A stretch of DNA of 32,000 nt, from positions 1,890,001 through 1,922,000 of the forward strand of contig NC_007969.1 in assembly GCF_000013905.1 (NCBI RefSeq), written 5' to 3'. Positions 7,517 to 26,897 of the stretch are shown one piece after another (the stretch's first letter is position 1; each line of letters starts with the position of its first letter). Source of the stretch: Psychrobacter cryohalolentis K5. Lineage in GTDB: Bacteria; Pseudomonadota; Gammaproteobacteria; Pseudomonadales; Moraxellaceae. A model generated the notes under the pieces. That model was not told the origin of the DNA, made no database searches, and saw only the letters and a program-made list of their open reading frames with translations. The translations under genes and the position numbers were made by a program.

Positions 7517-8227
7517 ATGAAAACCATCTATCATGCAGCAGATTCTCGTGGCGATGCCAACCATGGCTGGCTCAAAAGCAAGCACACCTTTAGCTTTGCC
7601 AATTATCACAATCCAGAACGTATGGGCTTTGGCGCGCTACGTGTCATCAATGATGACTTCGTCATTGGTGGTCAAGGCTTTGGTAAGCACTCACACCGCG
7701 ATATGGAAATTATCAGTATTCCTCTATCCGGTAAGCTCGGTCACGGCGATAACATCGGTAATAATGGCATCATCGAAACCGGTGAAATCCAAGTCATGTC
7801 AGCGGGTACTGGTATCACGCACAGCGAAATGAATGGCGATGACAAAGAAGAGGTGAAGTTCCTACAGATTTGGGTTATTCCAAATAAAATGAACGTTGAG
7901 CCTCGTTATCAGCAAGTTCGTATGGACGATATCCTAAAGCCAAATGAGTTCAATCAAGTATTGTCACCCAATGCTGACGATGCAGGCGTATGGATTCATC
8001 AAGATGCTTGGTTTAGCATGGGTGATTTCGATAAAGGTGTTACCCATACCTATCAGCTAAAAGATCCTAACAATGGTGTTTATGTCTTTGTCATTAGCGG
8101 TAAAGTTGTCGTAAACGGTAACACTTTGGATACACGCGATGGCCTTGGTGTTTGGGATACTAAGAACTTTACGATGGACGTCATCGATGATGCTAAAGTA
8201 TTGCTAATGGAAGTACCAATGAGCTAA
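7517..8227 (+). CDS. Pirin-family protein (YhhW-like, quercetin 2,3-dioxygenase type)
   Basis: 236-aa ORF with a bicupin length and the metal-binding region FGKHSHRDMEIISIPLSG...GITHSE. An AAGGA SD is present. Confidence 0.88.
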   Translation: MKTIYHAADSRGDANHGWLKSKHTFSFANYHNPERMGFGALRVINDDFVIGGQGFGKHSHRDMEIISIPLSGKLGHGDNIGNNGIIETGEIQVMSAGTGITHSEMNGDDKEEVKFLQIWVIPNKMNVEPRYQQVRMDDILKPNEFNQVLSPNADDAGVWIHQDAWFSMGDFDKGVTHTYQLKDPNNGVYVFVISGKVVVNGNTLDTRDGLGVWDTKNFTMDVIDDAKVLLMEVPMS

Positions 8228-13069: not shown

Positions 13070-14038
13070 TCAATAAATGGCTTTAACCTTATCGTCATAG
13101 CGCACGCCCGGTAGAATACATAGCATCTCAAATAGCAGGTTCGCGGCTAGTACCGAGGTGTTACCAAACGGGTCATACGGCGGTGACACTTCTACTAAAT
13201 CACCACCGACCACATCAAGGCCACGCATACCACGAATGATTTCAATACCTTGCGTTGACGTCAAGCCACCAATTTCAGCGGTTCCCGTACCCGGTGCAAA
13301 AGCAGGATCAATACCATCAATATCAAAACTTAAATAAACAGGGCCAGCGCCTAATTTTTCGCGCACTTCTGCCATCAAAGGTGTCAGCGATTTATACCAA
13401 CATTCTTCAGCAGGCACTACGCGAAAACCTTGCTCGGTTGACCAATCAAACTCTTCAGCACTATAACCCGTACCACGTAAACCAATTTGTACCACACGAT
13501 TACCATCGATGAGGTTCTCTTCAACTGCGCGGCGGAACGGCGTACCATGGGCAATTTTTTCGCCAAACATTTCATCATTGATATCGGCATGCGCATCGAT
13601 ATGCACCATACCAACAGGGCCATGTTTTTTGGCGAGCGCACGCAAAATAGGCAGTGCAATCGTATGATCGCCGCCTAACGTTAAAGGAATAGCGCCATGA
13701 CTGACGATTTTATCGGTATAGAATTTCTCAATAATATCGACGCTTTTTAGCAGGTTAAAGGTATTGATAGGAACGTCGCCAATGTCAGCGACTTGCAAAG
13801 ACTCAAAGGGAGCGGCGCGAGTGGCGACGTTATAAGGGCGAATCATGCGTGATTCATCGCGAATCTGGCGTGGTCCCAATCTTGCACCGCTACGGTTTGA
13901 TGCGCCAATATCTAAAGGCACCCCAACGAATGCTACATCCAGTCCTTCAGCATCGGCTTGGGTTGGCAGGCGCATCATAGAAGCAAAGCCGCCAAATCTT
14001 GGCATATCGTTGCCGCTTAATGGTTGATTGAATTTCAT
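13070..14038 (-). CDS. gbuA: Ureohydrolase of the agmatinase family, guanidinobutyrase-like
   Basis: Mn-binding motifs GGDHTIALP, HIDAHADIND and SFDIDGIDPAFAPGTGT are present. End-to-end it resembles what I recall of Pseudomonas GbuA (QPLSGNDMPRFGGFASMMRLP..., EVSPPYDPFGNTS). The track start at 14041 is a GTG; I prefer the adjacent ATG at 14038, which has an AAGGA SD 8 nt upstream. Confidence 0.8.
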   Translation of the reverse strand: MKFNQPLSGNDMPRFGGFASMMRLPTQADAEGLDVAFVGVPLDIGASNRSGARLGPRQIRDESRMIRPYNVATRAAPFESLQVADIGDVPINTFNLLKSVDIIEKFYTDKIVSHGAIPLTLGGDHTIALPILRALAKKHGPVGMVHIDAHADINDEMFGEKIAHGTPFRRAVEENLIDGNRVVQIGLRGTGYSAEEFDWSTEQGFRVVPAEECWYKSLTPLMAEVREKLGAGPVYLSFDIDGIDPAFAPGTGTAEIGGLTSTQGIEIIRGMRGLDVVGGDLVEVSPPYDPFGNTSVLAANLLFEMLCILPGVRYDDKVKAIY

Positions 14039-14078
14039 CACTTACATCCTTGTATCGATTGGTCAAAACAGACAATTT

Positions 14079-15235: not shown

Positions 15236-16660
15236 TTAATTAACTGATTGCGCTTTTTGATGCTTACGGACGCTAGACCCATCTTTACGCGTAATCGTTA
15301 TCCCTGTAAAGCCAAACAATATCGTCAGTAGCAATGATAAATAGCAGAAGAACGCATAAGGTAGATAATCAAGCACTGGTACGCCTAACGCTTGACTGAT
15401 AAACACACCGCACACACTCCATGGTACAAGTGGATTGATCACTGTACCGGCATCTTCAATGGTGCGTGATAGATTTTTTGGATGCAAGTTCAAGCGCTCA
15501 AACGTCGGACGAAATGCCGTACCCGATAAAAGAATACTCAAATACTGCTCACCGATAAGGACATTGATACTGAGTGCTGACATGGCAGCGGCAAAAATGG
15601 CGCGTCCTGCTGTCGTTAAACTGTCTTTAATACCAGATAACAATGCTGGCAAGATACCCAACGCCGTCAGCAATCCGCCTAAACTCAGCGCCAATATCAC
15701 AATCGCTTGAGTAAAGAACATACTTTGCACACCGCCACGCGACAGCATACCGCCCACTTCACCAAGCTCCAATGACTCTGCGGGTGTATAACCTGCAAAG
15801 AAATAACCGCCCAACTGCCCAACGTTTGGCGTGCTATGCATATAAGTAATGATAATTGCCACAGCAATGGTACAAATAATGGTGTAAATGGCATTAACTC
15901 GAAATAGAGCCAGCGCAATCAAGACCACAAATGGTAATACCGCATAACCATGTACCAAACCACTGTCAATCAATTGTCCTTTTAGCACCGTTACTTGACT
16001 TAAATCTGAGCCAGCTGTCTGTCCTGAGAAAAACCAAAATAATATAACCGTTAATATCCATGCCGGCACTGTAGTATACATCATATTGCGTATATGCTCG
16101 AACAAATCGATGCCTACAACCGCTGAAGCAATGGTACAAGTGTCTGATAATGGCGACATTTTATCACCAAAAAACGCCCCTGATACCACAGCGCCTGCCG
16201 CTATCGCAACGTTAGCATCAAAGGCATCACTCATACCAATGAAAGCCACGCCAAGCGTCGCAGCAGTCGTCAAACTACTGCCCAAAGCAATACCAATAAT
16301 AGAGGTCAATACAAAGGCGGAGATATAATAATACTGCGGAGATATCAGCTCAAAACCGAAATACATCAGCGTTGGGATGGCACCAGACATCATTAAGGCG
16401 GCGACCATCAAACCGATAAAGAAGAATAAATAGATCGCACCAATACCGCGCATAACGCCGGATGCCATTTGCGCTTGCATGTCATCAAAACTTAATCCTT
16501 TAAATATACCAATGCCTAGCAGGACACAGATAGCGAGGATCAATGATAAATGCGGTACCCAGCCAAAGCCAATCATGGTAACGCCCATGATAGCAATGAC
16601 AATGGCTGAAATCATAAATGCCAGTTGCGGTGAGATTTGGGTTAGAATTTTTGGAGGCAT
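15236..16660 (-). CDS. NhaC-family Na+/H+ antiporter-type transporter
   Basis: About 474-aa polytopic ORF. The C-terminal region IEDAGTVINPLVPWSVCGVFISQALGV resembles the conserved NhaC-family motif. The track start at 16663 is a GTG; the adjacent ATG at 16660 is better spaced from the AAGGA SD. Confidence 0.75.
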   Translation of the reverse strand: MPPKILTQISPQLAFMISAIVIAIMGVTMIGFGWVPHLSLILAICVLLGIGIFKGLSFDDMQAQMASGVMRGIGAIYLFFFIGLMVAALMMSGAIPTLMYFGFELISPQYYYISAFVLTSIIGIALGSSLTTAATLGVAFIGMSDAFDANVAIAAGAVVSGAFFGDKMSPLSDTCTIASAVVGIDLFEHIRNMMYTTVPAWILTVILFWFFSGQTAGSDLSQVTVLKGQLIDSGLVHGYAVLPFVVLIALALFRVNAIYTIICTIAVAIIITYMHSTPNVGQLGGYFFAGYTPAESLELGEVGGMLSRGGVQSMFFTQAIVILALSLGGLLTALGILPALLSGIKDSLTTAGRAIFAAAMSALSINVLIGEQYLSILLSGTAFRPTFERLNLHPKNLSRTIEDAGTVINPLVPWSVCGVFISQALGVPVLDYLPYAFFCYLSLLLTILFGFTGITITRKDGSSVRKHQKAQSVN

Positions 16661-16752
16661 CACACATCCTTAGAGTGCCAGTAGAGTCTGGCAACAGGGT
16701 TTGATTTTAGGGTGACAAGTTTAATCAGTTGCTAGCAGTATTGCTACTCTGA

Positions 16753-17094
16753 TTATTTGGTGAGCAAGCTGTCGGTCTTGGCTGCCATGACAAAGTCATT
16801 GCGATGCAAACCTTTAATACTGTGCGACCACCAAGTGACCGTCGCCTTGCCCCACTCTACCAATATGCCCGGATGATGCCCTTCTGCCTCAGAAATCTCA
16901 GCAAGCTCATTGGCAAATGCCATTGCTAAAACAAAGTTCTTAAATTTATATTGGCGCTGTAATTGCTTGATGCCATCGATTTCAATCAACGTCCACTCTG
17001 GAATTTGTTGTAATAACTCTGTTGCTTCGCTGTCGCTGACTGTCGGTGCGCCAATACGGCAGGCTTCACAGCTGGCTTGTGATAATGTCGTCAT
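16753..17094 (-). CDS. phhB: Pterin-4-alpha-carbinolamine dehydratase
   Basis: 113-aa ORF with the signature [31 protein letters not shown]. An AAGGA SD is present, and the gene is directly downstream of phhA. Confidence 0.93.
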
Positions 17095-17189: not shown

Positions 17190-18065
17190 TTAAGCCGTCT
17201 TAATAGCATATGTTGGCTCAAACAATCCTAAGCTCATCGCCTTTTTTACAGCGCCCATAATGTCGCTATTCACGATATCAAATAACGTATCCAAATCGTC
17301 AATTGCATAATAGATAGGCTGAATTTGATCAATACGGTAAGGCGTGCGCAATACGTCAATCAAATCAAACGCACGACAGTCCGGATCATCGCTTAGGGCA
17401 TAGATGGTTTCAGACGGTGAGCTTAAAATGCCGCCACCATAAATCTTGCGGGTTTCTTTGGTCGCGCCCATTAGACCAAATTCGATGGTGAACCAATACA
17501 GGCGTGCTAAATAAAGACGCTCTTGCTTAGTCGCATTGAGACCAAGCTTGCCATAAGTCTCATTAAAAGTTGCAAAAGCAGGATGGGTCAGCAGCGGACA
17601 ATGCCCGACGATTTCATGAAAAATATCTGGCTCTTCGATATAGTCCATATCATCAAAGCGGCGGATAAAGGTCGCAACCGGAAAGCGTTTATCAGCTAAG
17701 AGTTTGAAGAATTTACCGAAGCTGATTAACGCCGGTACAGCAGCGGTTTGCCAACCAGTACTGGCTTGCAATACTTCATCAATATCTTGTAGTTGCGGAA
17801 TATGCGTTGCTGGTAGCTTGAGTTTCTCTAAACCCTCAAGATAGGCTGAACTGGCACGATTGGGTATTTGCTTGGCTTGACGTTCAAGCAGTGCTTGCCA
17901 CATCGCGTTTTCATCGTCACTATAATGAATATGACCATGATTATCTGGCTGGCGCGATACGTAAGGTTGCTTCTTCTGAGTTAAATGATGAGTAGAAGCT
18001 TCAGTGCTTAACGAATTGCTACTGAGAGGCTTTATGTACGCAGTTGTCTGGTGACGGCTTTCCAT
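17190..18065 (-). CDS. phhA: Phenylalanine 4-monooxygenase
   Basis: 291-aa ORF with the aromatic amino-acid hydroxylase catalytic core (EEPDIFHEIVGHCPLL...YWFTIEFGL...KIYGGGILSS). An AAGGAA SD is present. Confidence 0.93.
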   Translation of the reverse strand: MESRHQTTAYIKPLSSNSLSTEASTHHLTQKKQPYVSRQPDNHGHIHYSDDENAMWQALLERQAKQIPNRASSAYLEGLEKLKLPATHIPQLQDIDEVLQASTGWQTAAVPALISFGKFFKLLADKRFPVATFIRRFDDMDYIEEPDIFHEIVGHCPLLTHPAFATFNETYGKLGLNATKQERLYLARLYWFTIEFGLMGATKETRKIYGGGILSSPSETIYALSDDPDCRAFDLIDVLRTPYRIDQIQPIYYAIDDLDTLFDIVNSDIMGAVKKAMSLGLFEPTYAIKTA

Positions 18066-18269: not shown

Positions 18270-19376
18270 TTATGGCGCTTCTGTCTCTATCTCTGTCTGA
18301 CCAACCATGCCACGGCGTACTTGATCGCGCTCGATTGATTCAAACAATGCTTTAAAGTTACCTTCGCCGAAGCCTTCTTCGTAATCACCTTTGCGCTGGA
18401 TAAACTCAAAGAATACTGGGCTGCCTAAGATGGTTTCAGAGAAAATCTGTAGTAGCAGACGCGGAACATCGCCCTCCGTCGTGCCATCTAACAAGATACC
18501 GCGCATCTGTAGCTCAGAGATATTCTCGCCATGACCTGGTAGACGCTCATCAAGCATCTTATAATAAGTATCATTTGGTGCCGTCATGAGTGGAATACCC
18601 ATCTCTCGCAATTTGTCGATGCTAGACAATAAATCATCACTCAATAGCGCGATATGCTGGATACCTTCGCCATTAAATTGCATCAAGTACTCTTCGATTT
18701 GACCGCCGCCCTGCTTTGACTCTTCGTTCAATGGGATACGAATTTTGCCATCAGGTGCAGTCATCGCTTTACTGGTCAAGCCAGTGTATTCACCTTTGAT
18801 ATCGAAATAACGGATTTCGCGGAAGTTAAAGATACGCTCGTAGAAGTCAGCCCAGTAAGCCATGCGACCACGGTAGACGTTATGCGTTAGATGGTCGATG
18901 ACTTTGAAGCCAAAGCCTTTTGGATGCTTATCAACATCAGGCAGATATTCAAAGTCGATGTCATAAATAGAGTTACCAGCGGTAAAGCGGTCGATAAGAT
19001 AAATGAGCGAGCCGCCGATACCTTTGATCGCTGGCAGACGTAACTCCATCACCCCTGTTTTCACATCGACTGGTTCAGCACCGTTTTCGATCGCTAAATC
19101 ATAAGCTTTCTGGGCATTTTTTACACGGAAACCCATGCTACAGGCGCCGGCACCATGCTCACCTAAAAAGTAGCTGCCATGGCTTTTTGGCTCACGGTTT
19201 AATATGAGATTGATGTCTCCTTGGCGAAACAAGGAAACATCTTTTGAGCGGTGATTGGCGACATGGGTAAAGCCAAGGTTGCGAAACAGCTCTTCGACAA
19301 GCTCAGGCTCTTGTGAGACGAACTCAACAAAATCGAAGCCTTGTAGACCCATAGGGTTGTCAAATAAATCTGCCAT
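18270..19376 (-). CDS. hppD: 4-hydroxyphenylpyruvate dioxygenase
   Basis: Two VOC modules and the conserved C-terminus [23 protein letters not shown] prefer the start at [19 protein letters not shown] (ATG 19376, AAGGA SD upstream). The 24-codon extension in the track does not look like HppD. Confidence 0.92.
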
Positions 19377-19473
19377 TGTCATCATCCTTAATTGCAATTG
19401 GTGGTATAAAGCGCTAAAAATTAGCAAAAAATAAGTTTCATCAATCATTCCTATTGACGATTCATTTATATTA

Positions 19474-19499: not shown

Positions 19500-19530
19500 G
19501 TATTTTTTGATTTATTTATCAGGTTTACTT

Positions 19531-20460
19531 ATGAATATCAGCATTCGCCAACTTACCGCTTTTATCAAAGTCGCTGACAACGGCAGCTTTACTCGTGCCA
19601 GCGACCAGATGCATTTGACCCAATCTGCGGTCAGTGGATTGATAAAAGAGCTTGAATCTAGCCTTGGCATTGTGTTGTTTGATCGCACTACACGCCAGCT
19701 GTCGTTGTCGGCAGTTGGACGGCATCTATTGCCGCAAGCTCGGCGCATCTTAAATGAGATGCAGCTGTTTGAAAATGAAGCCAGTAGCTTAACGAGCTTA
19801 GCGCAAGGTCAGGTCAGGCTCGCTGTATCACAGTTTGCGGCCTCCTCTATGCCAGCGGTTATCGCTCAGTTTGCCAAAGAATATCCTGAGATTAGCGTGT
19901 CTTTGCTCGATTGCTCAGCAGAAAATGTCTTAGAACACATTCAAAACATTGAGGTGGATTTGGGCGTGGGCACTGAGCTTGAATTTATGGACGCTGAAGA
20001 TGACATCAGCGCCGATTTGTTATATCAGCTGCCATTCTGTGTGGTCATGCCTGATAGTCATGCTCTGGCACGTAAATCTGAGATTGTTTGGCAAGATTTG
20101 ATTGATACGCCGCTCATTACCCTGCAAGGTCCATTTATTGAGCAAGTGACCGCAGAGCTTGATGAGCGTATCGCAAACCACATACAACAAGCACGCTATA
20201 AAGTAAATTTTATGTCGACAGCGCTCGAGATGACCCGTCAAGGCTTTGGTATTACCTTGTGTCTGCCTTATATGCCTGAGGTGATAGACTGGGTCAGCGC
20301 TAATGGTTTGCAGATGCGACCTTTGACGCAACCTGTCAAAATGCGCCGATTCTTTATTTACCAACGTTCATCGCGAGCTTTATCGCCGGCGAGTATCGCT
20401 TTTAAGCATTTTTTGCAGGGCTACTTTGCGACCCATTTTGATGATTTGCAAAATATTTAA
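19531..20460 (+). CDS. LysR-family transcriptional regulator, divergent from hppD
   Basis: The HTH is GSFTRASDQMHLTQSAVSGLIKELESSLG. The track start at 19507 is a TTG; the ATG at 19531 (MNISIRQLTAF) matches the usual LysR N-terminus. Confidence 0.88.
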   Translation: MNISIRQLTAFIKVADNGSFTRASDQMHLTQSAVSGLIKELESSLGIVLFDRTTRQLSLSAVGRHLLPQARRILNEMQLFENEASSLTSLAQGQVRLAVSQFAASSMPAVIAQFAKEYPEISVSLLDCSAENVLEHIQNIEVDLGVGTELEFMDAEDDISADLLYQLPFCVVMPDSHALARKSEIVWQDLIDTPLITLQGPFIEQVTAELDERIANHIQQARYKVNFMSTALEMTRQGFGITLCLPYMPEVIDWVSANGLQMRPLTQPVKMRRFFIYQRSSRALSPASIAFKHFLQGYFATHFDDLQNI

Positions 20461-20648: not shown

Positions 20649-21845
20649 ATGTTTGAACGTATCGATTACTATGCCGGCGACCCAATCTTAGGATTGATGG
20701 ACAAATTTGCAGCCGATAACAACCCAGATAAAGTCAATTTGGGTGTCGGTGTCTATTATGACGAAGATGGCAAAATGCCAGTACTTGAGTGTGTAAAAAC
20801 AGCTGAACAACGTATTGCAGACCCAATCTCTCCTCGCCCGTATTTACCAATGGCAGGTTTACCAGGACATCGCAAAGGCTGTCAAGAATTGCTGTTTGGT
20901 AAAGACGCTCAGATTTTACAAGATGGCTTAGTGGCTACTATCGCGACCATCGGTGGCTCTGGTGCACTAAAAGTCGGCGCAGAATTCATCCACGAATGGT
21001 TCCCGCAGTCTAAGTGTTACGTGAGCGACCCTACATGGGGCAATCACATTGCTATTTTTGAAGGGTCTGACGTCGAAGTCGGTAAATACCCGTACTACGA
21101 TACTGCTACTGGTGGCATCAAATTTGATGAGATGATCGCGTTTTTTGAGACATTGAATAAAGATGATGTTCTGCTGCTTCATCCTTGTTGTCATAACCCA
21201 ACGGGCGTTGATTTGACTCGTGAGCAATGGGATCAAGTCCTAAACGTCATTCAAGCGCGCGAGCTGATTCCGTTTATGGACATCGCTTATCAAGGCTTTG
21301 GCGAAGATATGGACAGCGATGCTTACGCCATTCGTAAAGCCGTCGATATGGGTCTGCCATTGTTTGTGAGTAACTCATTCTCTAAAAACTTATCGCTATA
21401 TGGCGAGCGTGTCGGTGGTCTATCAGTTGTTTGCCCAACGGTAGATGAAACTGATCGCGTCTTTGGTCAGCTGAACTCTACGGTACGTCGTATCTACTCA
21501 AGCCCGCCATCACATGGTGGTCGTGTGGTTGATATCGTTATGAACGACGAAGCCTTGCATGAGCAATGGGTTGGCGAAGTATATGCGATGCGTGACCGTA
21601 TCAAATCTATGCGTACCAAACTCAAATCAGTATTAGAAGAAAAAATCCCAGGTCGTAGCTTTGATTACTTGACCGCCCAGAACGGTATGTTTAGCTTTAC
21701 AGGTCTGACGCCTGAACAAGTTGCACAACTACAAAGCAAGTATGGTATCTATATGGTATCGAACTCACGTATGTGTGTTGCCGGCTTAAACAGTACCAAT
21801 ATCGACTATGTTGCCAATGCGATGGTTGACGTTTTAAAAGATTAA
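20649..21845 (+). CDS. tyrB: Aromatic-amino-acid / aspartate aminotransferase (class I)
   Basis: 398-aa ORF with the AspC/TyrB-type N-terminus MFERIDYYAGDPILGL and the PLP-lysine motif SNSFSKNLSLYGERVGG. An AAGGA SD is present. TyrB rather than AspC specificity is inferred from context. Confidence 0.85.
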   Translation: MFERIDYYAGDPILGLMDKFAADNNPDKVNLGVGVYYDEDGKMPVLECVKTAEQRIADPISPRPYLPMAGLPGHRKGCQELLFGKDAQILQDGLVATIATIGGSGALKVGAEFIHEWFPQSKCYVSDPTWGNHIAIFEGSDVEVGKYPYYDTATGGIKFDEMIAFFETLNKDDVLLLHPCCHNPTGVDLTREQWDQVLNVIQARELIPFMDIAYQGFGEDMDSDAYAIRKAVDMGLPLFVSNSFSKNLSLYGERVGGLSVVCPTVDETDRVFGQLNSTVRRIYSSPPSHGGRVVDIVMNDEALHEQWVGEVYAMRDRIKSMRTKLKSVLEEKIPGRSFDYLTAQNGMFSFTGLTPEQVAQLQSKYGIYMVSNSRMCVAGLNSTNIDYVANAMVDVLKD

Positions 21846-22048: not shown

Positions 22049-22221
22049 TAATGTGTTGATATGACTTTTCACTGACTATAGCTTTTAGTCTCGGTCAAAA
22101 CTCAATCAATTTATAGGACGAGCACATAAAAAAACTTGCAATCGATTACACTATAAATTACATTATACGTAAGTAGTTAATTATAACGTAATTTAATATT
22201 CGCTTTAGCAAGGAGCCGATC

Positions 22222-23511
22222 ATGTCAACGATTGACAAAAACCTCTCATCTTTCCTCGATATCGCAACCGATTCTGACTTCTCTATTCATAACCTACCTT
22301 ATGGCATTTTTAGCGATACTGCCGACGGCAAACGCCGCGCTGGTGTGGCTATTGGCAAGCACGTATTGGACTTATCGGTACTTGAAGCTGAAGGGCTATT
22401 AAGTCTAGACGGTGGTCCATATTTTGATCAAAATACCTTAAACGCCTTTATTGATTCTGGTCGAGACAACTGGACCAAAGCACGTCAAACCATACAGACG
22501 TTACTTTCTAGCGACTGCGATACCTTACGTGATAACGAAGATTTGCAGCAAATAGCCCTATTTCAACAATCAGACGTCACTATGCATCTGCCGGTTCAAG
22601 TGCCCGGCTTTACCGATTTCTATTCGTCTAAAGAGCACGCAACCAATGTCGGTACTATGTTCCGTGACCCAAGTAATGCCTTACTGCCTAACTGGACTGA
22701 GATGCCAGTAGGTTATAACGGACGCGCCAGCACCGTCATCGTCAGTGGTACAGATGTGATACGTCCATCAGGTCAGCTAAAACCCAATGCCGATGACCGC
22801 CCTATTTTCTCACCCTGTAAGCGTCTGGACTTTGAGCTTGAAACGGCGTTTGTCGTTGGCAAAGGTAATAATATTGGTCAACCAATTGCCGTAGATAATG
22901 CTATTGATCATATTTTTGGTATGGTTTTGCTAAACGATTGGTCAGCTCGTGACATTCAAAAATGGGAATATGTGCCGTTAGGTCCATTTAACGCCAAAAC
23001 TTTTGCCTCTGAAGTGTCTCCTTGGATTGTGACGATGGAAGCCTTAGCACCGTTCAAGATGCCATGCCCAACGCAAGAACCAAAGCCGCTTGCTTATCTA
23101 AACGAAAAAAACAGCAATAATAGTTACGATATCCATTTATCAGTAGAACTATTGCCTGAAAATGCTGAAGAAGCAACGGTGGTTTGCGAAACCAATTTTA
23201 AATATATGTACTGGTCAATGGCGCAGCAGTTGACTCACCATACTATCACTGGCTGTAAAGTAGAAGTGGGCGATATGATGGGTTCAGGGACTATCTCAGG
23301 ACCGATGCCTGATTCTTATGGCTCGATGTTAGAGATTGCGTGGAATGCAACCAAACCTGTCACCCTCCAAGGCGGTGAGACACGCAGCTTTATCGAAGAT
23401 GGTGACACGGTCATCATGAAAGGCTATAGCGAAAAAGACGGTATTCGTGTTGGCTTTGGTGAAGTACGCGGCAAAGTATTGCCTGCCCTTACCTTCGATT
23501 TTGACAAATAG
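22222..23511 (+). CDS. fahA: Fumarylacetoacetase
   Basis: 429-aa ORF with conserved FAH motifs (FYSSKEHATNVG, NDWSARDIQKWEYVPLGPFNAKTF, MYWSMAQQLTHHT). An AAGGAG SD is present. Confidence 0.93.
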   Translation: MSTIDKNLSSFLDIATDSDFSIHNLPYGIFSDTADGKRRAGVAIGKHVLDLSVLEAEGLLSLDGGPYFDQNTLNAFIDSGRDNWTKARQTIQTLLSSDCDTLRDNEDLQQIALFQQSDVTMHLPVQVPGFTDFYSSKEHATNVGTMFRDPSNALLPNWTEMPVGYNGRASTVIVSGTDVIRPSGQLKPNADDRPIFSPCKRLDFELETAFVVGKGNNIGQPIAVDNAIDHIFGMVLLNDWSARDIQKWEYVPLGPFNAKTFASEVSPWIVTMEALAPFKMPCPTQEPKPLAYLNEKNSNNSYDIHLSVELLPENAEEATVVCETNFKYMYWSMAQQLTHHTITGCKVEVGDMMGSGTISGPMPDSYGSMLEIAWNATKPVTLQGGETRSFIEDGDTVIMKGYSEKDGIRVGFGEVRGKVLPALTFDFDK

Positions 23512-23665
23512 TACTTATTTGTTGACCTGTATATAGTAAACGTTTATGTATAAAAAGGCGTGCAAACGATAGCGTTACGCTGTTAGGGGTTAATGACTTA
23601 TATTCATAGTTACTAACAGCCAACCGATTGATACAAATTGTACGTCCTATCAAAAGGAGTTTGAT

Positions 23666-24241
23666 ATGAGTTTTAAAATTGAAAAAATCCATCATGTGGC
23701 CTATCGCTGCAAAGACGCTAAAGAGACCGTTGAATGGTATAAAAAATATCTGAATATGGAGTTCATCCTAGCATTCGCTGAGGATCATGTACCTTCTACC
23801 AAAGCCTTTGACCCTTATATGCATGTGTTTTTAGATGCGGGCAATGGCAATGTCTTAGCATTTTTTGAAGTGCCTAATCAACCTGAAATGGGCTTTGACC
23901 CTAATACCCCAAGCTGGGTACAACATCTAGCGATGAAGGTAAAAGACCGTGATGCCTTAATGGCAGCTAAAAAGCATTTGGAAGAAAACGGCATCGACGT
24001 GATCGGTGTGACGAATCATGGCATCTTCCATTCTATCTATTTCTTCGATCCTAATGGACATCGTATGGAGCTTACTTACGATGATATTACCTCAGAAGAA
24101 AAAGTTTCGATGATTACTAAAGAGATGAAATATGAGATGCTGGACGAATGGTCACGTACCAAACGTGCGCCAGCACATACTCAGTTTTTACATGCAGAGG
24201 AGCTGGCTGAAGCACGAGAAGTCGCGCCTGCCGGTGAGTAA
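23666..24241 (+). CDS. One-domain VOC-superfamily (glyoxalase / extradiol dioxygenase-like) metalloenzyme; candidate homogentisate ring-cleavage enzyme (hypothesis)
   Basis: 191-aa ORF with a strong AAGGAG SD. The VOC fold pattern shows putative metal ligands H9/H10 (KIHHVAY), E68 (AFFEVP), H87 (VQHLAM) and E135 (HRMELTY). The family call is solid. The specific function is inferred only from its position in the fahA / IclR / maiA locus. Confidence 0.85.
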   Translation: MSFKIEKIHHVAYRCKDAKETVEWYKKYLNMEFILAFAEDHVPSTKAFDPYMHVFLDAGNGNVLAFFEVPNQPEMGFDPNTPSWVQHLAMKVKDRDALMAAKKHLEENGIDVIGVTNHGIFHSIYFFDPNGHRMELTYDDITSEEKVSMITKEMKYEMLDEWSRTKRAPAHTQFLHAEELAEAREVAPAGE

Positions 24242-24270
24242 TATTTTTTAGCGTTTAGAGTATTCTTTAT

Positions 24271-24300
24271 AAAATAGCTAAGATAATTCTTAGCTATTTT
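24271..24300. terminator. Bidirectional terminator between the VOC gene and the convergent IclR gene
   Basis: Perfect 12-bp stem aaaatagctaag / cttagctatttt with a 6-nt loop. A- and T-rich flanks are built into the stem. Confidence 0.75.
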
Positions 24301-24305
24301 ACGAG

Positions 24306-25166
24306 CTACACTATTTGATAACGTTGTGCAATTGCTAATATTTGCTCGACCACATTACGCTGATCACTCATGGGCAACTGCTCTGTGGTACCAATGATAG
24401 TAATGGCATACTCCAAAGACAAACTTTCAACAGATAGTTTGTCTTTGTCATATAGATTCGCAGTGGTTGAGAGCTGCGGTATGATAACGGGAATAGTAAT
24501 CGCATTAATCCCCATTAACATATCACCAGTAACAGTCGCATAGCCTTGGGTTCGAACTTTCGCTCGCAACTGGTTAAAGTGCTGCCATTTCTCTGTTATT
24601 GCTGACTCTTGTTTCGCCTGCCATTCTGTGATGACCAAGGGTTTGATAATGGCGTCTGGCTGATAGCTTGCAAACAAATGACCTGTCGCAGATGTAGTCA
24701 GCGGCATACGCGATCCGATGCGAGTAATAATACTAATAGTGGTGTCTGGTTCAACGGATTGAATGATAATCGGTCCTTCGCTAAACCATTTAGCGATTTG
24801 TACACCGCAGTTAAGCGTGTCTTTGATCTCATTAGCAATATGCGTCAGACGATCCAAGATATTATTTTGATTAAACCCACTATGACCTACTGCTCCTAGC
24901 GCGCCCATTGCATGAACTCTATCACCAAGTCCATAACGTCCATCACTGAGCTGGCGAGCATAGTGTTTACGAATAAGACTGACCAAATAACGGTGGCACT
25001 TTGCTGGATGCATTTGCATGGCTTGTGCAATATCCTTTAGCATCATCGGCTCGTTACAATCGATGAGCACGTCTAATATCGACAGCCCAATCTCAAGCGA
25101 TTGTACGCCGCCTTGGTTTTTATTCATCCTAGTAAGATTGTCTATCAGGTTTTCAGCTGCTGGCAT
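24306..25166 (-). CDS. IclR-family transcriptional regulator (HmgR-like by context)
   Basis: 286-aa ORF. The N-terminal winged HTH is present (VQSLEIGLSILDVL...MLKDIAQAMQMHPAKCHRYLVSLI), followed by an IclR effector-domain length. It is divergent from maiA. Confidence 0.88.
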   Translation of the reverse strand: MPAAENLIDNLTRMNKNQGGVQSLEIGLSILDVLIDCNEPMMLKDIAQAMQMHPAKCHRYLVSLIRKHYARQLSDGRYGLGDRVHAMGALGAVGHSGFNQNNILDRLTHIANEIKDTLNCGVQIAKWFSEGPIIIQSVEPDTTISIITRIGSRMPLTTSATGHLFASYQPDAIIKPLVITEWQAKQESAITEKWQHFNQLRAKVRTQGYATVTGDMLMGINAITIPVIIPQLSTTANLYDKDKLSVESLSLEYAITIIGTTEQLPMSDQRNVVEQILAIAQRYQIV

Positions 25167-25335: not shown

Positions 25336-25983
25336 ATGATGACACTTTATGGCTACTTTCGCAGTAGTACCTCTTACCGTACACGTATCGCAATGAATTT
25401 AAAGCAGTTAGATTACGATTACATTGCGGTTAATTTAGCAAAAGATGAACAATTAGAAGCCGTCTTTCAATCTATTAATCCTCAAGGCTTGGTACCCGTC
25501 GTACAAATAAATGATTTATGGTTGTATCAAAGTCCTGCTATTTTGGAGTGGTTAGAAGAGGTCTATCCTGAGCATCCTCTATTGCCCAAAGACGCAGCAG
25601 GTCGCATGCAAGTACGGGCTTTGAGCGCTATGATTGGCTGTGATATCCATCCGCTAAATAACCGACGTATTTTGCAGTATCTGCGTAATGAGCTGTCAGT
25701 AGATGAGGATCAAGTCATGGCTTGGTGCCATCGCTGGATGAGTGAAGGTTTTGACGCTCTCGAAAAACGCTTGGCACAAGACAAAACACGCGGTAAATTC
25801 TGCTATGGCGACAGCCCTACTTTTGCAGATTGTTATCTGATTCCGCAGGTCTCTTCTGCCGAACGCTTCAAGGTAGATCTCAGTGCTTATCCAAATATCG
25901 TTGCGATCGACGCCCACTGTCGAACATTAAAGGCTTTTGCCGACGCTGACCCTATGGTGCAGCCTGATGCACCAAATGCTTGA
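25336..25983 (+). CDS. maiA: Maleylacetoacetate isomerase (zeta-class glutathione S-transferase)
   Basis: 215-aa ORF with the zeta-GST N-terminal motif YFRSSTSYRTRIAMNLK and the INPQGLVPVV region. An AAGGAA SD is present. Confidence 0.9.
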   Translation: MMTLYGYFRSSTSYRTRIAMNLKQLDYDYIAVNLAKDEQLEAVFQSINPQGLVPVVQINDLWLYQSPAILEWLEEVYPEHPLLPKDAAGRMQVRALSAMIGCDIHPLNNRRILQYLRNELSVDEDQVMAWCHRWMSEGFDALEKRLAQDKTRGKFCYGDSPTFADCYLIPQVSSAERFKVDLSAYPNIVAIDAHCRTLKAFADADPMVQPDAPNA

Positions 25984-25993
25984 TATAAGCTGC

Positions 25994-26024
25994 AAAAAAG
26001 CCTCCTAAATTGGAGGCTTTTTTC
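25994..26024. terminator. Bidirectional rho-independent terminator after maiA
   Basis: aaaaaaGCCTCC-taaatt-GGAGGCtttttt. It lies between the convergent maiA and the small minus-strand ORF. Confidence 0.85.
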
Positions 26025-26087
26025 TGAAAATATAGTGGTACTATTGCCATTTATACTATTTAACTTAAAGTATGAAAAATAGGCTAT

Positions 26088-26333
26088 TCAAATATTCATA
26101 TCAGATTGTGTTGCAGCCACTGTTTTTATGGGTACTGCGAACAGCCAAGCCGTACCACAATTACAGTAAAAAAAGCCATCTTTAAATTCGACAATATAAG
26201 CGGTAAAATCGTTACCACAATGATCCATCATCGCTTGTTCGTCACTGTCATCATCGACTGCGCACCATATTTGTTTGTCACCTCGTGCAAGCAATGCGCG
26301 TGTTAAATCGCTTCCTCTCAACTCATTATTCAT
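26088..26333 (-). CDS. Small hypothetical protein (81 aa, acidic centre, Cys-containing C-terminal half)
   Basis: I prefer the start at MNNELRGSDL... (ATG 26333), which is preceded by an AAGGAG SD 6 nt upstream. No family was recognised. Support for coding comes only from the SD, the ORF length and the shared terminator. Confidence 0.5.
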   Translation of the reverse strand: MNNELRGSDLTRALLARGDKQIWCAVDDDSDEQAMMDHCGNDFTAYIVEFKDGFFYCNCGTAWLFAVPIKTVAATQSDMNI

Positions 26334-26897
26334 ACCCAGCTCCTTAACTTCTCTCACCATAGTTTGAGCTATTCGTCATGAAATATAGGGTTTTCTATAC
26401 TGATATTTATTAATGATCTTTATCGTTGTTAAAGCGATGAGCTTGATATAAGCGATGCAAATCCATTTGCTACTCATCTGTACCCATCAAAAATTATGCC
26501 TATATTTAACGATGATTTACCTTTCTTGCTCTATTCTATAAACGCTTTGTATCCTAGCTGTCTTATTGTAACGCTATGCAAGCAAAAGTGTAACAACCAG
26601 ATATAGTATTTCCGATGAATGGTCAAGATATGAATATGAACGGTCGGTACATTTAAAAATACTACTAAGTGTTATGCATATTAATCGGATTTGGCACCTT
26701 ATAATCTAATAGTTCTTTGAATATTATCGATTAAATGAACGATGATGCACTATCGATATTAAATTTTTAGAATAGTTTTCAGTAGTTAAAAAAATCTAAT
26801 GAAACTCTTGTTTTTTATTAACCTATGTAACACTTCTCACTTTTTGAGTGAGCATTAGAGACCAAAATCGGTGCGAAAAATCAGGTAAAATAGTTTT

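Follow-up and report, generated by a model that had tools for sequence, protein, structure and literature searches.

A probable one-domain VOC-type homogentisate 1,2-dioxygenase encoded in the phenylalanine/tyrosine catabolic cluster of Psychrobacter cryohalolentis K5

Results

The locus and its pathway genes

The region analyzed here is a stretch of 32,000 nucleotides (nt) of Psychrobacter cryohalolentis K5 (NCBI RefSeq assembly GCF_000013905.1, contig NC_007969.1, positions 1,890,001 to 1,922,000 of the forward strand), which is called the window throughout and whose own numbering is used for all coordinates. It carries the phenylalanine and tyrosine catabolic genes phhA, phhB, hppD, tyrB, fahA and maiA, together with an open reading frame (ORF) of 191 amino acids (aa) with an ATG start at 23666-24241 (+), located between fahA and a convergent iclR gene. 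Residues 7-136 of the encoded protein match the Pfam family PF00903 (Glyoxalase/VOC) with E=1.7e-14, which places it among the glyoxalase-fold, or vicinal oxygen chelate (VOC), proteins. The evidence assembled below argues that this protein is, very probably, the one-domain homogentisate 1,2-dioxygenase (HGD) of the pathway and the orthologue of an Acinetobacter enzyme deposited as PDB entry 9u42.

The preliminary description of this DNA, made from the sequence alone, had pointed to a VOC ORF of this length with a strong Shine-Dalgarno sequence between fahA and an IclR regulator, and the locus is indeed arranged in this manner. The Shine-Dalgarno sequence AAGGAG is read at 23654-23659 (+), 6 nt 5' of the ATG codon, and the gene lies on the same strand as fahA, 155 bp downstream of it. 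In the spacer between fahA and the VOC gene, conservation among six Psychrobacter sequences is confined to the ribosome-binding block, TATCAAAAGGAGTTTGATATG. No support was found for a second promoter or operator there, since, besides this restricted conservation, a consensus scan returned no more sites than in shuffled sequence. The best protein matches of the ORF are from Psychrobacter, at 85-95% identity, and the closest locus among the matches listed is that of P. immobilis, at 96%.

The neighboring genes were identified with NCBIfam models that have curated cut-offs, and the regulators with Pfam. Directly upstream of the VOC gene lies fahA, coding for fumarylacetoacetase (22222-23511, +; TIGR01266, 594.6 bits versus a cut-off of 375.3), and further along the same strand is maiA, coding for maleylacetoacetate isomerase, a zeta-class glutathione S-transferase (25336-25983, +; TIGR01262, 278.8 versus 171.05 bits). 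The aromatic amino acid transaminase gene of the tyrB type is found at 20649-21845 (+; NF006719, 560.1 versus 377 bits). On the opposite strand are hppD, coding for the homogentisate-forming 4-hydroxyphenylpyruvate dioxygenase (HPPD; 18270-19448, -; TIGR01263, 382.9 versus 277 bits), phhA for phenylalanine 4-monooxygenase (17190-18065, -; TIGR01267, 323.4 versus 264.75 bits) and phhB for pterin-4a-carbinolamine dehydratase (16753-17094, -; NF002016, 179.7 versus 133 bits). The regulator convergent with the VOC gene (24306-25166, -) combines PF09339 (HTH_IclR) with PF01614 (IclR_C) and is HmgR-like by its position. The six pathway genes and the IclR regulator named in the preliminary description are thus all present. 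As called, the hppD ORF is 392 aa long, and the family models begin to match it at residues 29-37 (TIGR01263 at residue 37); it probably carries about 25 surplus N-terminal residues, with the true start at a Met codon at residues 22-25 (MMTMADLF...).

The enzyme expected between HppD and MaiA/FahA is the cupin-type HmgA. The query used in the search for it was a human HGD sequence validated by Pfam (HgmA_N, 2.6e-138; HgmA_C, 1.1e-81). In a tblastn search of the 32-kb window this query gave no match even at E<=10, which bears out the earlier remark that neither a cupin HmgA nor a remnant of one is found here. The VOC ORF itself matched no HgmA model in the Pfam and NCBIfam scans, and the sole cupin detected by Pfam among the large ORFs of the window is a Pirin at 7517-8227. 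Cupin hmgA is likewise missing within 10 kb of the VOC gene in each of 13 Moraxellaceae loci.

Orthology with the Acinetobacter enzyme

The window protein aligns with the single chain of PDB 9u42 without gaps at 79% identity (143/181 residues; phmmer E=5.5e-101). In a profile search of the PDB, 9u42 was matched with E=4.4e-114 and the next entry with 5e-09. The title of the 9u42 entry names the protein homogentisate 1,2-dioxygenase. According to a sentence in a 2026 Acinetobacter paper (PMC13572102), Seo, Hwangbo, Kim and Park (2025; Proteins 93:2150) showed that the A. baumannii homologue is homogentisate 1,2-dioxygenase, and the title of the 2025 study includes the words 'without glyoxalase I functional convergence'.

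Genetic evidence comes from A. baumannii as well. Zhao et al. 2022 (PMC9431530) described an insertion of Tn2006 in a gene termed 'hmgA' which led to pyomelanin, and a plasmid copy of the gene in trans abolished the pigment. The 'hmgA' primers in the supplement of that study encode MTFAIKK... and ...EEELGA followed by a stop codon, with which the 9u42 protein begins and ends. The gene that they called 'hmgA' is hence the VOC gene, so that the genetic demonstration holds for the VOC family. In addition, A1S_3414-3416 (fahA, maiA and a glyoxalase) were found to be jointly induced (PMC5423435). Further literature searches, on homogentisate with Psychrobacter or with vicinal oxygen chelate enzymes and on GapMind, returned nothing relevant.

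The name 'hmgA' is used inconsistently among the A. baumannii pyomelanin papers (PMC11945678, PMC7646211). In a 2025 outbreak paper (PMC11945678), the gene taken as the hmgA reference is 633 nt long and overlaps the end of hmgB (NC_016603.1:3098928-3099560); by position and size it looks more like maiA than like the VOC gene.

In orthology, residue conservation and gene neighborhood the ORF agrees with the Acinetobacter VOC-type HGD family. Location in a pathway cluster with fahA, maiA, hppD and an IclR regulator is common to the window, to 8/8 Psychrobacter loci and to 5/5 Acinetobacter loci; in each of the eight former loci the VOC gene is preceded by fahA at a distance of 1.4-1.6 kb, and iclR adjoins the VOC gene in both genera. 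The catalytic activity and the pyomelanin phenotype were reported by others for the A. baumannii orthologue, and a corresponding activity is predicted for the Psychrobacter protein.

Conserved residues and relation to other VOC enzymes

Residue conservation was assessed by aligning 81 members of the family, drawn from alpha-, beta- and gammaproteobacteria. Sixty-five positions are invariant, among them H9, H10, H87, H118, Y125 and E135, as well as Y13, R14, Y51, H53, H132 and H176. The candidate metal site given in the preliminary description (H9/H10, E68, H87 and E135) holds up well in this comparison, its fourth candidate ligand, E68, being conserved in at least 95% of the members. In a profile of 12 members aligned with the catechol 2,3-dioxygenase XylE (PDB 1mpy), H87 corresponds to H214, H118 to H246, Y125 to Y255 and E135 to E265. 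H214 and E265 of XylE are two of its three metal ligands, and H246 and Y255 are second-sphere catalytic residues in type I extradiol dioxygenases. From this alignment the predicted ligands would be H9 or H10, H87 and E135, making up a 2-His-1-carboxylate triad; the assignment of the first of them to H9 or H10, on strand 1, follows from its position and from the alignment with HpaD (residues 4-140). E68 is a possible fourth ligand of the glyoxalase I kind, while H118 and Y125 are the putative second-sphere acid/base residues. By analogy with extradiol dioxygenases, Fe(II) is the presumed metal. The protein ends in a helical segment of about 55 residues, in which W162, T165, P169 and H176 are invariant across the 81 members and which is absent from the matched models and structures of plain glyoxalase I and methylmalonyl-CoA epimerase (MMCE), 121-151 residues in length.

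This conservation bears on the proposal that the protein is an inactive relic, a 'distant HmgA homologue without dioxygenase activity', such that the pathway stays open at homogentisate and pyomelanin is made. It goes back to Fonseca et al. 2020 (PMC7646211) and their work on AB4353, a pigmented strain of A. baumannii. They found no hmgA homologue in this strain and noted, between hmgC and hmgR, a gene for a "type I ring-cleaving dioxygenase", which they guessed to be inactive. The proposal gains some ground from Acinetobacter sp. Tol 5, which has the cluster and does not grow on phenylalanine, 4-hydroxyphenylpyruvate or homogentisate (PMC13572102). A relic is nevertheless hard to reconcile with 65 invariant residues in sequences from three proteobacterial classes, every candidate catalytic residue included, or with the conservation of the ribosome-binding site; the intact fahA and maiA genes would be purposeless without ring cleavage, and in A. 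baumannii the gene supplied in trans abolishes the pigment. An inactive protein is thus scarcely credible.

A second proposal to be weighed is that the protein is a glyoxalase I, a methylmalonyl-CoA epimerase or a thiol transferase of the fosfomycin-resistance type which lies in the cluster by chance. Public annotation as 'glyoxalase' or 'VOC family protein' would agree with this, and there are weak NCBIfam matches to YaeR-like, FosB/FosA, MMCE and GlxI models. All these scores, however, are far under the curated cut-offs: glyoxalase I (TIGR00068) reached 19.9 bits versus 120, methylmalonyl-CoA epimerase (TIGR03081) 23.4 versus 114.95 and FosB 30.7 versus 171, and MMCE structures are alike in general fold only, with 15-19% identity. 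The equivalog models of catechol 2,3-dioxygenase (catechol_2_3; 32.7 versus 320.2 bits) and HpaD (30.9 versus 321.4 bits) were rejected on the same grounds. As every named VOC equivalog cut-off is missed, there is no tight clustering with glyoxalase I or MMCE, the outcome which the preliminary description had regarded as speaking against its own proposal.

Structural comparison was made with an AlphaFold2 model of mediocre quality, built from a shallow alignment of 12 sequences (pLDDT 68.6). The model consists of two beta-alpha-beta-beta-beta modules and C-terminal helices. In a Foldseek search it was followed, after 9u42, by MMCE, GlxI and FosB, and intrachain pairing of the MMCE kind fits at about 4 Å rmsd. 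This neighborhood would favor a glyoxalase, epimerase or thiol transferase; against it stand the conserved H118 and Y125, second-sphere residues of extradiol dioxygenases, the linkage to homogentisate genes kept across three proteobacterial classes and, as far as its title goes, the study of Seo et al. 2025. Identity of the protein with one of these other VOC enzymes, with its place in the cluster due to chance, is accordingly very improbable.

Distribution and gene neighborhood of the family

The family is compact, comprising 93 clusters at 50% identity with E<=1e-30, many of which are fragments. A scan of one genome per species detected relatives in at least 593 species of alpha-, beta- and gammaproteobacteria, and these appear in public databases as 'VOC family protein', 'glyoxalase', 'catechol 2,3-dioxygenase-like lactoylglutathione lyase family enzyme' or 'hypothetical protein'. 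Neither NCBIfam nor Pfam contains a family model which names a VOC-type HGD.

Gene context was surveyed in 80 loci and one additional Acinetobacter locus, over 10 kb around the VOC gene, using the pathway proteins of the window as queries. Within this distance fahA occurs in 45/81 loci, maiA in 41 and hppD in 23, and at least one homogentisate-pathway gene (fahA, maiA, hppD or hmgA) is present in 62. Two of the arrangements are free of cupin hmgA. In the first, seen in Moraxellaceae, Marinomonas and Paenalcaligenes, the VOC gene follows fahA, or fahA and maiA (fahA-(maiA)-VOC), and iclR and hppD are often close by. The second, in Burkholderiales and Kangiella, is hppD-VOC followed by fahA or phhA; hppD, the VOC gene and fahA (504 bits on TIGR01266) are contiguous in Ramlibacter. 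Two metagenomic proteins carry the association further. One of 517 aa (P0221), encoded on a single 2.3-kb contig, is a full-length HPPD (TIGR01263, 358 bits) fused to a VOC domain of the family, and the other (P0128; 778 aa, 4 members) joins a partial HPPD to such a domain. The fusions thus provide a Rosetta-stone link between the homogentisate-producing and the homogentisate-consuming enzyme.

Some loci contain further genes. In certain Psychrobacter (L001:10720-11775, and L004, L005 and L007 by spacing) the VOC gene and iclR are separated by an additional gene of about 1.2 kb. Its product, of 351 aa, has a signal sequence resembling that of lipoproteins; the gene is absent from the window and from L002, L003 and L006. 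In Marinomonas foliarum (L013:10613-12895) a 760-aa protein, the N-terminal 400 residues of which are a cytochrome P450, is encoded directly 3' of fahA-maiA-VOC and is followed by TRAP-transporter genes. It may be another aromatic hydroxylase feeding the pathway.

The third arrangement, mostly alphaproteobacterial, has the order hmgA-fahA-MBL-FAD monooxygenase-VOC-maiA, where MBL denotes a gene of the metallo-beta-lactamase fold. An example is the Leisingera cluster (L075:4360-11240), in which the cupin hmgA scores 630 bits on TIGR01015 and the FAD monooxygenase 805 bits on NF006002/PRK08132. Similar clusters are found in L018, L020, L030, L033, L037, L041, L051, L055, L063, L064, L078 and others, and the taxa in which the two enzymes coexist include Ruegeria, Phaeobacter, Leisingera, Rhizobiaceae and others, at least 21 alphaproteobacterial species altogether. 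The FAD-dependent aromatic hydroxylase, of 557 aa, lies within 10 kb in 43/81 loci, mostly directly upstream of the VOC gene, and the 316-aa protein of the metallo-beta-lactamase fold is encoded in 37/81. The cupin-associated VOC proteins share 64-71% identity with the window protein, and in the 81-member alignment no column holds a residue that separates them from the other members, those of Moraxellaceae included.

Several observations weigh against assigning HGD activity to the window protein. An intact cupin hmgA shares the cluster with the VOC gene in 21/81 loci, all of them alphaproteobacterial, and the role of the family may therefore be not only, or not always, that of an HGD. The metal in the 9u42 crystal is Zn, not Fe. 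The Foldseek search did rank 9u42 first, but with an rmsd of 18 Å and a TM score of 0.44-0.49; the misfit may be due to a domain-swapped dimer in the crystal, as in glyoxalase I and FosB, or to a poor model. The evidence of Seo et al. 2025 is represented here by the title of the paper, the title of the PDB entry and one citing sentence, and the growth phenotype of Tol 5 mentioned above counts on this side as well. The negative search for cupin hmgA covers the 32-kb window of the Psychrobacter genome, and the function of the Psychrobacter protein would be transferred from an orthologue that is 79% identical.

These observations give room to the view that the VOC protein is an accessory or other ring-cleavage enzyme, acting on another hydroquinone or a catechol, with a cupin HmgA outside the window as the real HGD. 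The loci which retain both enzymes, the frequent proximity of the PRK08132-type monooxygenase and the metallo-beta-lactamase-fold gene, and the lack of residues setting the cupin-associated proteins apart would all agree with it. In A. baumannii, however, where no canonical hmgA was found, disruption of the orthologue alone leads to pyomelanin derived from homogentisate, and both the 9u42 entry and the 2025 paper, by their titles and the citing sentence, name the protein an HGD. Loci of Marinomonas, Paenalcaligenes and Burkholderiales, like the 13 of Moraxellaceae, have no cupin hmgA within 10 kb, and nearly all have fahA, maiA or hppD adjacent. An accessory role of this kind in Psychrobacter is therefore improbable.

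Somewhat less improbable, though still unlikely, is a second or broader role of the VOC enzyme, in which case Moraxellaceae would have lost the cupin and kept one enzyme of a partly redundant pair. Among the possibilities for such a role are cleavage of a hydroquinone made by the adjacent PRK08132-type monooxygenase, and service as an HGD isoenzyme that differs in its metal or O2 needs. Because 21 loci keep both enzymes, the VOC family is not everywhere a replacement of HmgA. The coexistence thus lowers the confidence that a VOC gene means HGD across the family, and does so much less for Moraxellaceae, where direct evidence exists. Non-orthologous replacement of HmgA by a VOC enzyme, as put forward in the preliminary description, is supported where cupin hmgA is absent from the cluster and does not extend to the family as a whole.

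Regulatory elements and other features of the window

A promoter- or operator-like footprint lies upstream of fahA at 22135-22195 (+). It consists of CTTGCAAT (22135-22142) and an imperfect 19-nt inverted repeat with the arms TAAATTACATTATACGTAA and TTAATTATAACGTAATTTA (22154-22172 and 22177-22195), which are 84% complementary. The motif and the repeat are kept in all nine Psychrobacter sequences, namely the window and eight loci, while the flanks diverge. The repeat is a candidate site and likely the operator of the adjacent IclR regulator, overlapped by a putative promoter. A perfect inverted repeat of 14 bp with a 4-nt loop (24270-24301, assigned to neither strand; 100% complementary) separates the convergent VOC and iclR genes. 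It resembles a terminator shared by the two but is AT-rich, and the consensus terminator scan did not call the hairpin. Rfam, run over the whole 32-kb window at gathering thresholds, returned no structured RNA match. A regulator of the LysR family (19507-20460, +; PF00126 and PF03466) is divergent from hppD and keeps this position in the Psychrobacter loci.

The gap between maiA and dinB (25984-26897) is unusually long, 915 bp, and its sole plausible ORF (26088-26360, -) encodes 90 aa with a Cys-rich C-terminal half. On the other side of the cluster, phhB adjoins a gene for a membrane protein of the NhaC family (15236-16663, -; 375.8 versus the NhaC cut-off of 370), which is also ArcD-like (294 bits, below the cut-off). 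This protein could be a substrate transporter for the phenylalanine/tyrosine cluster or for its other neighbors, the ORF at 13070-14041 and a thiamine pyrophosphate (TPP) enzyme. On inspection that ORF, of 323 aa, reads like a candidate member of the arginase/guanidino-acid hydrolase family. The other large ORFs of the window are unrelated to the pathway according to Pfam, and include a thiolase, a FadB-like protein, a CoA-transferase, LysR regulators, DoxX, Pirin, a nitroreductase, the TPP enzyme and others.

Discussion

The assignment of the VOC protein as HGD closes the phenylalanine/tyrosine pathway in the window. PhhAB would convert phenylalanine to tyrosine, the TyrB-type transaminase would yield 4-hydroxyphenylpyruvate, and HppD would turn this into homogentisate. 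Homogentisate would then be bound by the VOC protein at a divalent-metal center, presumably Fe(II), where attack by O2 would open the ring beside the 2-hydroxyl to give maleylacetoacetate. MaiA would isomerize the latter to fumarylacetoacetate, from which FahA would release fumarate and acetoacetate. The VOC protein would thereby use the catalytic module of type I extradiol dioxygenases on a para-hydroquinone. The fahA and VOC genes probably form one transcription unit, with a promoter that would overlap the conserved inverted repeat upstream of fahA, and the IclR protein may act there as a repressor. HmgR of Pseudomonas putida reportedly has homogentisate as its inducer (Arias-Barrau et al. 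2004), and by analogy homogentisate may be the inducer here.

That a one-domain VOC enzyme carries out the HGD step, the central idea of the preliminary description, is thus backed by the orthology with 9u42, by the pyomelanin genetics of A. baumannii and by the literature on the orthologue. Its suggestion that the homogentisate dioxygenase family would be new has been overtaken by the literature, in which the family was described from Acinetobacter, by genetics in 2022 and by a structure in 2025; the main discovery is therefore published, and the Psychrobacter gene adds another member. The residual value of the finding lies in the annotation gap, with family proteins listed under generic names in at least 593 species, and in the coexistence of cupin and VOC enzymes in marine alphaproteobacteria, which poses a testable question. 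Since no reference model exists for the family, automated reconstructions are expected to report a false gap at the HGD step of phenylalanine and tyrosine catabolism, and pyomelanin production may be wrongly predicted for Psychrobacter, Acinetobacter, Marinomonas and many Burkholderiales. The locus would also offer a clean case of non-orthologous enzyme displacement, with a VOC fold in place of a cupin.

Compared with known systems, the window protein stands closest to the Acinetobacter VOC-type HGD (9u42, the 'hmgA' of Zhao and locus A1S_3416). Both have a one-domain VOC fold with a C-terminal helical tail, both carry the invariant His, Glu and Tyr residues (H9, H10, E68, H87, H118, Y125 and E135 are all identical in 9u42), and both are encoded near fahA, maiA, iclR and hppD. 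The gene order differs, being fahA-VOC / iclR / maiA in Psychrobacter and fahA-maiA-VOC-iclR in Acinetobacter; the C-terminal tail of the Psychrobacter protein is about 9 residues longer, and its cluster additionally has phhAB and tyrB. The canonical HmgA/HGD (PF20510 and PF04209; TIGR01015) shares with the window protein the proposed reaction and the slot between HppD and MaiA/FahA, yet it has an unrelated cupin fold of about 430-450 aa and, in the tblastn search of the window, no sequence similarity to the 191-aa VOC protein.

Within the VOC superfamily, glyoxalase I (E. coli GlxI, PDB 1f9z; Foldseek E=4.3e-06) is alike in the size of the core fold and in an H/E/H/E pattern at equivalent strand positions, corresponding to H9, E68, H87 and E135. 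The type I extradiol dioxygenases, such as XylE and L-DOPA dioxygenase (PDB 6on1), have in common with the window protein the beta-alpha-beta-beta-beta modules and the aligned catalytic residues, and L-DOPA dioxygenase, a Foldseek neighbor, is likewise a short single-chain VOC protein (chains of 142-148 residues). Identity to these enzymes is only about 15-20%; XylE and BphC are two-domain proteins in contrast to the one-domain VOC protein, and their group acts on catechol, whereas the proposed substrate here is a para-hydroquinone, 2,5-dihydroxyphenylacetate. PcpA and LinE, hydroquinone 1,2-dioxygenases with two domains and about 320 aa, act on (chloro)hydroquinones. The comparison with these two, drawn already in the preliminary description, is an analogy of chemistry, and no specific kinship in sequence or fold was seen: neither the sequence matches in the PDB (E<=0.01) nor the 50 Foldseek matches listed included a PcpA/LinE chain. 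What they share with the proposed activity of the window protein is the use of a VOC-superfamily scaffold for the cleavage of hydroquinone rings beside a hydroxyl group.

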